A stretch of DNA of 64,000 bases, from contig CAVYRW010000004.1 of the NCBI GenBank assembly GCA_963771045.1, forward strand, positions 96,001 through 160,000. The letters run 5' to 3'. The stretch is from Waddliaceae bacterium (GTDB taxonomy: Bacteria; Chlamydiota; Chlamydiia; Chlamydiales; SLFE01). How positions within the stretch are numbered: the stretch's first letter is position 1; every line of letters starts with the position of its first letter. This document shows positions 14,123 through 23,632 of this stretch, piece by piece. The notes under the pieces were generated by a model, which had not been told where the DNA came from, ran no database searches, and worked only from the letters and a program-made list of their open reading frames with translations. The translations under genes and the position numbers were made by a program.

Positions 14123-15489
14123 TGTAATGGTCCCCAAAATTAGGACCACATGCTAAGCTAATATCCTCCTGAAAATCGGAGGATAAAAATGACCCGTAAA
14201 CGTAGGAAATTCTCAGCTGAGTTCAAGCTCAAAGCTGTAACTGAAATCTTGAAAGGAGAAAAGACCGCTTCCCAATTAGCAGGCGAGCTTGGTGTTCACC
14301 CCGTGGTTCTATCCGAGTGGAAAAAGCACTTTCTGGAGGTAGGACCTCAAATCTTCGAAAAACCTAAAAAGGCATCAAAGGTAAATCAGGAAGAGAAAGA
14401 AAAGGCCGAATTGTTCGAGCAGATCGGTCGACTCAAGATGGAAAACGAATGGCTTAAAAAAAATTGAGGACCTGGATTTAAATGACCGACGAGCCCTCAT
14501 TGAACCATCTCATCCACACTTTTCTCAGAGAAAACAGTGTGAAATTCTCTCTTTGCACCGCTCTGGATTATATTATCAACCGGCAGAACCGGGTGAGGAC
14601 ACTCTCCGCCTCATGCGTGCAATCGATGAAGAATATCTTGAAAATCCTCACTATGGGAGGAGGCAAATGGGTGAAATAATGAGGGCTCGGGGGTTTGATG
14701 TGGGCAATAAGAAGATCAGATCACTGATGCGTCTGGTGGGATTAGAAGCTATTTACCCCAAACAAAACCTGAGCAAACCCAACAAAGAGCATAAAAAATA
14801 TCCCTATTTGCTCCGTGGATTGAAAATTGACCGACCCGATCAAACCTGGGCAGGAGATATCACCTATATCCCACTTCTGCACGGCTTTGGTTACCTTTTC
14901 GCGATCATTGACTGGTTTAGTCGTTATGTGATCGAGTGGGAGTTGTCCAATCTACTAGATAGCAGTTTTTGTGTTGAAGCACTTGATAGAGGTCTTGTCG
15001 ATACAAGACCCGAGATTTTCAACACAGATCAAGGGGTGCAATTCACAAGTTGCTGCTTTGTCGGCAGACTTGAAGAGAATGAGGTAAAAGTGAGCATGGA
15101 CGGAAAAGGGCGGGCTCTTGACAATGTATTCATTGAAAGGCTCTGGAGAAGCGTAAAGTATGAGAACGTTTATCCAAGAGGATATGAGACTCTGAAAGAA
15201 GTCCGTCAGGGACTGAAAGGCTATTTCAAGTACTACAATGAGAGAAGGCCTCATCAAGGGCTTGATTATCGAACTCCAGCTGAGGTATATTTTGCGAAGT
15301 AGTATCCAAAGCGCCGGCGCGCGCTCCCCCCATGGGGGGAGCAAGGCTTGTGCCTTCGGATATGGAAGCGAACTAGTACTCTGAGGTTAGAGAAGAAAAC
15401 TGTGAAATACAGAAAAAGGAACTTTTAACAACCAGAGGATGTTAGCTTAAGTTTTGGTGATTTTGGTCCTAAGGAAGGGACCCACCTCA
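14123..15489 (+). mobile_element. IS3-family element
   Basis: TG...CA ends with imperfect IRs TGTAATGGTCCCCAAAATTAGGACCA and TGGTCCTAAGGAAGGGACCCACCTCA. Confidence 0.88.
14189..15302 (+). CDS. IS3 transposase OrfA (14189..14467) and OrfB, joined by a -1 frameshift
   Basis: RRKFSAEFK HTH; A8 slippery run near 14456-14463; DDE motifs WAGDITY, NTDQG, DNVFIERLWRSVKYE. Confidence 0.92.
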
Positions 15490-20315: not shown

Positions 20316-20436
20316 GAGAACTCTAAAAATAACTCATCAAGCATAACAAACTAATTTCAGAATGCCTACTGAAAAAGGTAAGCATTCAGCCATTGCCGTG
20401 AATTTATTATTTGAAAAATTTCAACGCGGAGGCGCT

Positions 20437-20548
20437 CAAAACAAATTAACGATGAAAACGATTTAACGATAGGAACGATAAAAGAAAAAGATTGAGATCT
20501 TGATTGATTATCCTTTATATCGTTACATCGTTCTTATCGTTTGTTTTG
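20437..20548. repeat. Inverted repeat built from tandem AACGAT units
   Basis: AACGAT at 20448, 20457, 20465 and 20474; ATCGTT at 20519, 20527 and 20536; closed by CAAAACAAA/TTTGTTTTG. Confidence 0.7.
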
Positions 20549-20658
20549 TCTGGCCCGCTTTTCTCATAGATACTCCTGACATTTTGACATCCTTTAGGCG
20601 TTGTTGCATAAATCACCACTGAGACCACCGAGCTCACTGAGAGATTATGAGAGAGGAA

Positions 20659-21066
20659 TTAAATGATTAGACGCCTAATCCCATTTTTTAGAAGTTTTAC
20701 ATTGAAATTGATGAGCAAACCTCTGCCACCACCATTATGCTTAAGATAGGATAGAAGTTGGGCCTCATGAACAGGCAAGAGATTGGCCACAGATTTTATC
20801 TCCAAAATAACCTTATCTTCCACTATCATATCGATCCGGTAGCCTGAGTCTAGCTTTTTATCACGATAAATAATAGGTACTGGTATCTGCCGGTTAACTT
20901 TCAAACCCGCAAGGTTCAACTCGTAGCAAAGACAAGTTTCGTATGTCGATTCAAGCAAGCCTGGACCTAATCTTCGATGAACTTCAATCGCAGCACCTAT
21001 GATTTCCCCTGTTAAAAGGTCATTTCTTTTTTGGTTGGCTTCTTCAGTTGTGTGGGTACTAGTCAT
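20659..21066 (-). CDS. GxxExxY protein (PD-(D/E)XK nuclease fold)
   Basis: IIGAAIEVHRRLGPGLLESTY, RID...LEIK, AQLLSYL, GLLINF. Confidence 0.93.
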   Translation of the reverse strand: MTSTHTTEEANQKRNDLLTGEIIGAAIEVHRRLGPGLLESTYETCLCYELNLAGLKVNRQIPVPIIYRDKKLDSGYRIDMIVEDKVILEIKSVANLLPVHEAQLLSYLKHNGGGRGLLINFNVKLLKNGIRRLII

Positions 21067-21150
21067 CTTTTCTCCAAAAAGGGCGAATGCGAGCTTGCCG
21101 ACAAATACCTAATACTCTAATTTTTAGTTGCAACAAATTGGAGGATCAAG

Positions 21151-22094
21151 ATGAAGGCAAAATATCGCATTCGCAACTGGAACGACTATAACAAATCTCT
21201 TATTCAAAGGGGAAGCATAACTGTTTGGTTTTCTGAAGATGCTATCAATAAGTGGATGGCTCCAAAAGAAATAGGAAAAAAGGGGCGTCCAAAACTCTAT
21301 TCTGATGACGCTATTCTCACCGCGCTCATTATTCGATCGGTTTTTCATCTTCCATTGAGAGCACTCGAAGGATTTTTGACATCTCTTGTTATGATTTTAT
21401 CTGTTGGTTTATCGATTCCTTCTTATACTCAAATTTGTCGGAGAGCTAAGTTGTTGGGGCAAGAGTTGAAGAAACTTTCGAAAAAAAAGTCACCAATATT
21501 GTAATCGATTCAACCGGTTTGAAAGTGTACGGAGAGGGTGAATGGAAAGTTAGGCAGCATGGAATCAGTAAAAGGCGAACATGGAGAAAGCTCCATCTGG
21601 CAGTCTGCCCTGACTCTCACGAAATTATTTTCGAAATTCTTACTGAAAATAACGTTGCAGATTGTGAAGTGTATCCAAAACTTCTCGAGGTAATGCCGAA
21701 ATCAGTTAAGCGCACATATGGAGATGGGGCTTATGATACTAAGCGATGCTATGCTGCAAATGTAGTTCACGGCTCAATTCCTATTATTCCACCCAATAGG
21801 AATGCTGTTTTTCGAGAAAACATATCTCCTTCTTGGAAGATGCGGAATATCAGTTTGCTGGAAATTTCAGGTTTAGGAGGTGATGATGATGCAAGAAAAT
21901 TATGGAAAAAGTTGAAAGGTTATCATCGTCGATCACTTGCAGAAACAGCCATGTTTAGATTTAAACGATTCTTTGGAAATGATTTAAGAAGTAGAACTCT
22001 GGAAACCCAAAGGGCTGAATCAAGGGCAAAATGTGAAGCACTAAATATAATGACAAAGCTGGGAATGCCTGAAAGTGAATTAATAGCAGCTTAA
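21151..22094 (+). CDS. IS903-like transposase, frameshifted at an A-run near 21481-21488
   Basis: YRIRNWNDYNKSLIQRGSIT, IDSTGLKVYGEGEW, WRKLHL, DGAYD, GYHRRSLAET. Confidence 0.9.
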
Positions 22095-22297
22095 ATCAAA
22101 TCTCTCATATTCTCTCTGTGCGCTCTTGTGAGCTCTGTGGTTAATTACGCAACAAAGCCGGGACGACTACTTAGTTCGAGCAATATACTCCCAAATAATA
22201 ATATTCTATTTTAATTAATTATTTTATAATACTTAAACTATTGACAAAATAACTATTTTTGTAATATGCTAATATAATTGTAAAATTAGGAGTAATT

Positions 22298-23383
22298 ATG
22301 ATAAGAGATATAAACCAATCATATGCTATTACGAAGGACTTAGAGGCGCTTTCCAGAAAAGATACTGATTTGATTATCAAAGACTCAAAATCTTTTTGGG
22401 CTATATTTTGCAAAGCCTACAGCGATTTGCCTAATACAGATAAGGGGGATTCGGCACGTTTTACAGCAACTATTTTAGATAACAAACTCACTATAAAAGG
22501 GAATAAAAGTTCAATCGAAGCTATCAAGAAAGTTATAGAGTTCATAAGGAAAAGTTTTGAAAGAGATTATAAGGATAAGCAAGAGTCAACATTTATTCTA
22601 ATTCCTGATTATGGTAACTACTTCTATCGTCGACCATCTCGTGACCCGATTCATTTAGATGATCAATATAAACATTATTATCCTGATTCTATTACAAAGC
22701 AGTTGTTTGACCAGTCTATTAGTCCTTGTATGAAAGATTTTTCTCGATCCCTCGGGGCTATTTGTACTCGGAAAGTGACAATACAATTGATTGATCGTAT
22801 GAACAATTGGGATTCTTTTGGAGCAAAAGAGAGAGTTCATGCTTTTAAATTTGATTGGTCTCAAGGCTTAAATCTTGTTTTTCCTATTACCCCTTTACTC
22901 ATAAATAAAGAAAATCCCCTCTATTCACTCTATCAAAAACAAAAGAAATGCGACTTGACATTGTCTGCTAAAGGCGGAGAAACCGTAAAAGTTCACAGTC
23001 TTGTTCTTTATGCTAGTGCCGGAAAAGTTATGAGGGCTTTGCTTGACGCCCAAATGAAAGAATCAATCGAGAAGGTATTCGAATTGAAGGAATTTACACT
23101 AAGCACGGTAAAAGCTTTTGCCGAGTTTTGCTACCTGGGAACCGAGGGTATTTCACAAAAATCAATATGGAATAATGAAATTGACTTAATCGAACTGTTC
23201 AAAATGGCACATTTGTTTCAATATAAAGACCTTATTGACCACTGCACCAACATGATTGCCTTATTTTCTTCCAGACTAGAACTTGAAGATATCAAATATC
23301 TGTCGGAGAAATATGATAACGAACATTTAAAGCAGCTTCATGACCACCTAGCCAAAAAAAACGAAGAAAAAAAGGATGAGTAA
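22298..23383 (+). CDS. C-terminal BTB/POZ-domain protein
   Basis: CDLTL...KVHSLVLYA...FAEFCY...ELFKMAHLFQYKDLIDHC. Confidence 0.8.
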   Translation: MIRDINQSYAITKDLEALSRKDTDLIIKDSKSFWAIFCKAYSDLPNTDKGDSARFTATILDNKLTIKGNKSSIEAIKKVIEFIRKSFERDYKDKQESTFILIPDYGNYFYRRPSRDPIHLDDQYKHYYPDSITKQLFDQSISPCMKDFSRSLGAICTRKVTIQLIDRMNNWDSFGAKERVHAFKFDWSQGLNLVFPITPLLINKENPLYSLYQKQKKCDLTLSAKGGETVKVHSLVLYASAGKVMRALLDAQMKESIEKVFELKEFTLSTVKAFAEFCYLGTEGISQKSIWNNEIDLIELFKMAHLFQYKDLIDHCTNMIALFSSRLELEDIKYLSEKYDNEHLKQLHDHLAKKNEEKKDE

Positions 23384-23455
23384 GAGAACTAACCCGGATA
23401 CCTCACCGCAACCGGTGAGCAATCAGGGTCTTAGAGTTATCTCACCGAATACTTA

Positions 23456-23623
23456 CGAGCCACTTGCTTTAGCTCCGACAAAACCGATTTTTTGAGCTAT
23501 TTTGCCGAGATTTGCCAGTTGGCGCAAATTCACATACTCTTTAGAGTAGGGAATTTGCGCCAACTGGCAAAGGTCGGTGAAAGAGCCAAAAAGCGGTCTG
23601 TCGGAGCTAAAGCAAGTGGCTCT
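23456..23623. repeat. MITE-like long palindrome, family A
   Basis: GAGCCACTTGCTTTAGCTCCGACA...TTTGCCAGTTGGCGCAAATTC paired with GAATTTGCGCCAACTGGCAAA...TGTCGGAGCTAAAGCAAGTGGCTC; TA on both flanks. Confidence 0.85.
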
Positions 23624-23632
23624 TACCTGAAA

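Follow-up and report, generated by a model that had tools for sequence, protein, structure and literature searches.

A locus in the window, the whole 64,000-nucleotide stretch of Waddliaceae DNA analysed here, raises the question of why an IS903-like insertion sequence carries a GxxExxY gene inside long, repeat-built ends, and whether that gene helps to move the element or is carried by it. The composite insertion sequence (20597-22159, plus strand) is 1563 bp long in the window copy, whereas the 15 further full copies in the same genome measure 1564 bp; the boundaries are identical in all 16. Its outermost 18 bp on each side are IS903-type terminal inverted repeats, or tips (20597-20614 on the plus strand and 22142-22159 on the minus strand), which match the right end of IS903B at 16/18 and 14/18 bases, respectively. 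Directly inside each tip lies an arm of three CACnGAG-like units. The left arm (20615-20654, plus strand) has units at 20617-20623, 20626-20632 and 20635-20641, followed by a purine-rich tail, while the right arm (22101-22141, minus strand) has units at 22139-22133, 22130-22123 and 22120-22114, giving periods of 9 and 9 bp on the left and 9 and 10 bp on the right. The arms enclose a GxxExxY (PDDEXK_3) gene of 135 aa (20659-21066, minus strand), from which the right arm is ~1 kb distant, and an IS5-family, IS903-group DDE transposase gene (21151-22094, plus strand); the stop codons of the two genes are separated from the inner edges of the arms by 4 and 6 bp, and the reading frames of these two genes are the only ones within 20597-22159 to match a protein family. 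When the two ends were compared (20597-20654 and 22101-22159), 47/59 columns aligned with a score of 45.5, against 29.5 for the best of 5000 shuffles, and the inner part alone scored 31.5 against a shuffle maximum of 22.5. A preliminary description of this DNA had already placed a transposase and a divergent GxxExxY gene 84 bp apart between IS903-type termini, with ~58-bp inverted repeats built from these units and with both stop codons near the inner repeat edges, and its coordinates and anatomy proved correct on each of these points.

The divergent intergenic region of 84 bp (21067-21150) can be aligned between composites and holds no arm remnant; in 10/10 composites, no arm stands on the 5′ side of GxxExxY. 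It likely contains the presumed promoters of both genes, and a sigma-70 scan of the region returned no site. A tip-like word before the transposase start was dropped as a candidate feature, as it is present in only 4/10 composites.

An intact copy of the transposase matched NF033579 with 289 bits (cut-off 140) and shares ~46% identity, across 99% of its length, with the transposases of ISSod12, ISVa2 and IS903B, with a DDE triad (D120, D192 and E265) that is kept in 76/76 cases. The DDE profile, the tips and a 9-bp target duplication assign the transposition module to the IS903 group of the IS5 family. The preliminary description overlooked that the window copy is frameshifted: one base is missing from an A run near 21480, which splits the gene into ORFs of 117 and 191 aa, whereas 15/16 full copies have a single 314-aa ORF. 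The longer A run was found in all six DNA sequencing runs with covering contigs, although these contigs merge copies, so that a mutation and an assembly slip look the same. The A run looks slippery, but programmed frameshifting was rejected given the 15/16 copies in frame. Canonical IS903 has one ORF, whereas this element has a second, divergent gene, and the IS903-group entries in the accessible text of PMC3281130, including ISPam1 and ISPpa8, are 1050–1054 bp long with ends of 15–27 bp. With a repeat arm joined to the inner side of each tip, the ends reach 58 bp and are longer than those of IS903; at 1564 bp with two genes, the element is therefore a variant rather than a canonical single-gene IS903.

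The GxxExxY protein matched TIGR04256 with 148 bits (cut-off 35) and PF13366 with 142.7 bits (cut-off 22). Residues E39, D79, E89, K91, Q103 and Y107, which we take to be RecB/Cas4-type motifs, are kept in 81–83 of 83 homologues, and a structure model (pLDDT 91) has a PD-(D/E)XK-type fold, so the protein is a predicted PD-(D/E)XK nuclease. Structural matches to R.SwaI (Z 7.8, rmsd 3.1, 114 aligned residues), Cas4 SSO0001 (Z 6.9), Hjc (Z 6.5) and AddB-type domains were middling to weak, with no clear best among PD-(D/E)XK enzymes, and Foldseek returned nothing at E 0.001 or better. Among solved structures, no relative was found by sequence; Pfam found no TnsA domain in GxxExxY, and TnsA was absent from the matches listed by two fold searches. 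Estimates of dN/dS ranged from 0.044 to 0.096 in the four measurable pairs, the other 11/15 pairs being saturated at synonymous sites, and these codon comparisons show GxxExxY to be under purifying selection, part of which may date from its time as a free cassette. The closest named relatives come from Parachlamydiales, Chlamydiales and Waddliaceae assemblies (best 80 of 550 matches), while relatives in a plasmid collection occur in eight records and are all <60% identical. A predicted complex of transposase and GxxExxY scored 0.00 against a mark of 0.32, which counts neither way, and an RNA contig of 217 bases that partly covers GxxExxY, with five differences, was rejected as a sign of expression. 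In the available text of PMC3424549, PF13366 is listed as a family of unknown function, and one published account mentions a GxxExxY gene that another tool called cas4.

Comparison of copies showed that the element transposes as one two-gene unit. The 2.57-Mb genome (G000) has 16 full copies that differ at seven alignment columns, and both genes are present in 16/16. A 9-bp target duplication was identified at 13/16 copies, of which 12 are exact and direct and the thirteenth lies behind an IS256-like element inserted in the right tip. A second genome of the same genus (G001) encodes nine full transposases at 98–100% identity, with duplications at 7/8 two-ended copies, none of which equals a G000 target. 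The earlier expectation that both genes move jointly with a 9-bp duplication was thus borne out in both genomes, and the arrangement named there as contrary to it, a left inverted repeat just upstream of 21151 with no GxxExxY, is absent among the 16 full copies. Six of the seven G001 copies compared differ from the window element by 2–5 bases and the seventh by 21, whereas flanking core DNA is 88–90% identical between G000 and G001; near-identical copies at other target sites against this level of core identity make a recent transfer of the element between the two species likely. A seventeenth G000 copy is a hybrid, whose left 349 bp match this element and whose right part derives from a sister at 78% identity. 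The hybrid is flanked by a 9-bp duplication, and its GxxExxY gene is interrupted by an IS256-like element. This IS256-like element, assigned to its family by sequence reading, is 1398 bp long and present in nine copies, two of which are those inside the hybrid's GxxExxY gene and in the right tip of another copy of the composite (C4:1701314-1704285 and C4:792027-793424 in G000).

The window copy is one of three full G000 copies without a target duplication, as the preliminary description had seen. Of four duplication-less cases among the 17 copies, one is explained by the IS256-like insertion in the tip, while the remaining three, including the window copy, have likely lost the duplication through adjacent deletion; the accessible text of PMC11708052 reports that some IS903 copies lack a duplication and that adjacent deletions are common. 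Inversion by recombination between duplication-less copies was discarded, as no swapped-duplication cross-matches were found among the 17 copies.

The insertion sites bear directly on whether GxxExxY drives homing or addiction, cutting free arrays or element-free sites and so favouring insertion or retention, as the preliminary description had suggested. A predicted nuclease with intact motif residues would suit such a role, as would the location of the window copy: the 3.2-kb island around it stands in place of most of an arm-like hairpin that G001 has at the same site. Homing-endonuclease elements insert at a specific site, however, whereas the 13 G000 targets with a direct duplication are unrelated in sequence beyond a low GC content (0.31–0.41), other targets are used in G001, and none is at an array. 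A loose arm-like match was found within 500 bp of the insertion at only 1/17 copies, no target is common to G000 and the examined G001 copies, there is no methylase or antitoxin partner inside the element, and derivatives without GxxExxY are common. With insertion sites that are AT-rich and lie away from arrays, and with no sign of homing or GxxExxY-driven movement in the G000 and G001 copies, we regard homing or addiction as very unlikely.

The island around the window copy (20436-23631), which is missing at the matching place in G001, consists of an AACGAT-unit hairpin, the insertion sequence, a BTB gene and a palindromic repeat. At this site G001 has an intact, gene-less hairpin of CGCGGAG/CGCAGGG units, of which the window keeps the first ~16 bases (20420-20435). 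The AACGAT hairpin (20443-20546) is an inverted repeat with 50-bp arms, in appearance a further module with repeat arms and no gene. Contig C3 has a copy at 95% identity, which likewise adjoins a CGCGGAG-type hairpin. The gene at 22298-23383 (plus strand) encodes a protein of 361 aa with a eukaryote-like BTB/POZ domain (PF00651) and has no DNA match in G001, G002 or G003. A MITE-like palindromic repeat of ~170 bp (23454-23625) has partial copies at ~12 places in G000 and many matches in G001 and G002. Elsewhere in the window, an IS3-family element with ORFs of 92 and 249 aa occupies 14189-15302 (plus strand).

To establish where the arms come from, we compared GxxExxY loci with transposase loci. 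The best 80 of 550 GxxExxY loci, drawn from many phyla, were surveyed, four of which were dropped for short flanks; the remaining 76 include five copies from one assembly and two composites. Inward-facing CACnGAG arrays occur on both sides of the gene at 54/76 of these loci and some array occurs at 71/76, compared with 7/750 control windows, and these counts are underestimates, as the array pattern missed visible arms of L134 and L065. The preliminary description had stated that CACAGAG-type inverted repeats often flank GxxExxY genes, and the 54/76 loci confirm this. In the same survey, only 1/133 long neighbouring ORFs encodes a transposase and most are housekeeping genes; the transposase fragments in the two composites were too short to pass the size cut. 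Conversely, among 80 related metagenome transposase loci (best 80 of 574), 71/80 have no GxxExxY match, and in these GxxExxY-less relatives arms were detected on 0/61 left ends and 1/66 right ends, the single armed end being that of L058, whose contig is cut 76 bp upstream. As arms surround GxxExxY genes and are missing from GxxExxY-less relatives, these comparisons show each extended end to be an IS903-type tip fused to a three-unit CACnGAG arm of GxxExxY type.

Alignment of 20 ends showed that the letters of the units are invariant or nearly so, while the spacers vary, and 11/12 right arms of diverged relatives also parse into three units with variable spacers. The left and right arms of one element mostly differ (scores of 0.63–0.89 in 6/7 elements), the exception being L055, whose arms are 95% alike. 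Right-arm similarity weakly follows that of GxxExxY (Spearman 0.31, against −0.11 for the transposase, across six elements that are not independent). The host genome has only about two lone CACAGAG arrays, which gives little indication that GxxExxY spreads arms there. A search of the literature, with ISfinder, most subscription papers and supplements outside its reach, found no description of the element or of the arms.

The composite is old and selected. A divergent GxxExxY gene is present in all seven metagenome loci with a transposase at least 67% identical and >200 bp of upstream sequence (best 80 of 574), and the tip-plus-arm pattern was detected in 19/401 genomes sampled from the phylum, of which the G015 match looks like chance, while a reversed control gave no matches. 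Five genomes have bursts of 16–33 fused ends (24, 16 and 16 pattern matches in G011, G194 and G224, respectively). Many pattern matches are gene-less derivatives of 70–263 bp that keep tip and arm, some with a 9-bp duplication (exact in L219, L221 and L234, with one mismatch in L235). A transposase tree (LG+G4; 31 of 88 rows) placed 11 composite transposases on one branch with moderate support (85/84), sister to three arm-less elements. L065 has the fused architecture on another transposase branch, and its placement on the main branch was rejected (p-AU 0.003, in a one-clade test without L082); a separate origin, a transposase exchange or a gain followed by losses would all fit. In a quick and weakly resolved GxxExxY tree, the composite genes do not form one clade (five changes for nine rows) and the tip-less genes L133 and L004 group among them. 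The sequence identity of GxxExxY does not follow that of the transposase (89% versus 71% in L055; rho −0.15).

GxxExxY cassettes have apparently been captured repeatedly, including by an IS630 element. In one Waddliaceae assembly, five near-identical 1.76-kb IS630 elements (L135–L139; about 2831-4594 in L135) each contain a complete GxxExxY cassette with its arms, in convergent orientation relative to the transposase gene; these arms are tight on the GxxExxY gene and far from the IS630 ends. This is an independent GxxExxY transporter IS. L062 (1-1860) is an IS903-like element with a co-oriented GxxExxY gene, an internal hairpin and plain ends. A longer-period arm type, found both fused to IS903 tips and around a free GxxExxY gene (L226 and L238 in G293, L227 in G313, and L142), hints at a further separate fusion or at arm replacement. 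In G011, a 480-bp unit (L256, 1428-1907) has tips and arms at both ends, a broken GxxExxY gene, no transposase and no duplication.

These data could be taken to mean that GxxExxY is an accessory transposition subunit. Bound to the subterminal arms, it would process either the ends or a branched intermediate, in the manner of TnsA or a junction resolvase. The element resembles Tn7 in that a PD-(D/E)XK-fold protein and a DDE enzyme are paired within one pair of ends that have repeated subterminal units, but it has no third or fourth gene and no ATPase or target-selector genes inside 20597-22159. In addition, Tn7 makes a 5-bp target duplication rather than one of 9 bp, and GxxExxY mostly exists without a transposase. 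A subunit role would account for arms that are fused to both tips and kept through synonymous-site saturation, for the same architecture on two transposase branches, for the bursts of fused ends and for the weak fold neighbours, which include Cas4, the Hjc resolvase and AddB-type domains; TnsA itself is described as a PD-(D/E)XK transposase subunit in the available text of PMC3424549. We nevertheless consider this role unlikely, given that the nearest sister transposases are arm-less at their readable ends, that GxxExxY has no TnsA domain by Pfam, that its identities do not track those of the transposase, that it also rides on IS630, and that a 9-bp duplication is usual for single-gene IS903-group elements in the portion of PMC3281130 available.

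At the other extreme, GxxExxY could be an inert or host-serving passenger, with arms that are either extra transposase sites or the outcome of ends copying each other. Two IS903-like elements carry an unrelated divergent passenger of 184 aa with a SEC-C motif and have no arms (L088, 42-593; L091, 168-719), the gene-less derivatives keep tip and arm along with 9-bp duplications, and the near-identical arms of L055 would be a direct product of end copying. In most elements, however, the two arms differ yet keep their unit letters, so copying alone is insufficient, all putative catalytic residues of GxxExxY are under strong constraint, and the IS630 element keeps both arms tight on GxxExxY at a distance from its own ends. 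We therefore doubt that GxxExxY is a plain passenger, and hold this to be improbable.

The account that we favour, and think somewhat more probable than its competitors taken together, is that the DDE enzyme alone moves the unit and that a GxxExxY cassette was captured, after which the left end was duplicated on the right and the inner arm disappeared, with GxxExxY still recognising the arms. The transposase would move the whole 1564-bp unit through its outer 18-bp tips, with cutting and joining by ordinary IS903 chemistry for which GxxExxY is not needed. Elsewhere the DDE module functions with no GxxExxY, which is missing from 71/80 related loci, and a papillation assay for IS903 used the transposase and ends only, according to the accessible text of PMC3003695. 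A GxxExxY cassette would have landed just inside the left tip, and the left end would then have been copied onto the right, as the L055 arms suggest; with the subsequent loss of the inner arm, the arms now enclose the transposase as well. The predicted nuclease would still recognise the inverted arm pair around itself, and we propose that the arms and the gene persist because of this recognition, which is likely in view of their co-occurrence. The cassette would thus be a selfish unit that is nested in, and spread by, an insertion sequence and that at times leaves as a free cassette. The preliminary description had alternatively proposed that a GxxExxY cassette recruited a DDE transposase, but the polarity looks reversed: the outermost ends, the length of the duplication and the bursts of copies are those of the DDE enzyme, and the IS most likely captured the cassette because sister IS903-like elements have neither GxxExxY nor arms.

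A further reading, which we hold tentatively and regard as rather unlikely, is that the element has two functional, nested sets of ends, with the DDE enzyme acting on the tips and GxxExxY acting on the arms. GxxExxY would either help to process the ends, in a minimal system of TnsA/TnsB type that arose more than once, or provide a second route by which the arm-bounded core moves by itself. Movement of the core was looked for in several ways. No copies moved at arm boundaries were found, as tips are present on all 16 full copies and the hybrid, and G000 has no empty tip pairs that could be footprints of excision at the arm boundaries. Contigs from eight sequencing runs, which drop rare forms, contained no circles or arm-to-arm joints. 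Four empty tip pairs were identified in 2/5 other genomes, cut inside the tips, with one 9-bp and one 8-bp repeat; these were not counted as support for excision, given the position of the cuts and an alternative IS903-like source in G011.

The element fits the description of a transporter IS, in which an extra ORF lies between the ends and moves with them as one unit, as in the 16/16 copies here. By definition, the passenger of a transporter IS has no part in transposition. Here the passenger came with inverted cis-repeats of its own, now incorporated into both ends, and it is conserved across many host families, whereas the passengers of transporter IS differ between elements. The term (tIS) is used for ISKpn21, ISKpn65 and ISRel10 in the available text of PMC10132070, and also appears in that of PMC9330008. 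Compared with other members of the GxxExxY/PDDEXK_3 family, the gene has the same profile match, motif residues and CACnGAG arm design, but most members have housekeeping genes as neighbours and an arm close against the gene on either side. Here, by contrast, the transposase separates the gene from its upstream arm, at a distance of ~1 kb, and the unit is multi-copy and has moved recently. The pairing of a small DNA-processing gene with short inverted repeats, and with gene-less pairs nearby, is comparable to REP/REPIN sequences and RAYT, although RAYT is a tyrosine transposase in the portion of PMC3337134 available, while the flanked gene here encodes a PDDEXK_3 protein and it is a DDE enzyme, making a 9-bp duplication, that confers mobility.

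GxxExxY is a widespread family of unknown function, and its usual quiet cassettes between housekeeping genes offer nothing to assay. This element unites a GxxExxY gene and its candidate DNA sites in a 1.56-kb unit that has recently transposed and likely crossed species, so GxxExxY recognition and any effect on mobility are directly testable. If GxxExxY were a plain passenger, the value of the element would fall to that of a well-documented new transporter IS. On the account that we favour, the ends of one selfish unit have taken in another, apparently on more than one occasion in the phylum. If the nested-ends reading were true, GxxExxY would be the missing mobilising enzyme of a widespread and undescribed class of repeat-armed cassettes, present here in an assayable form.
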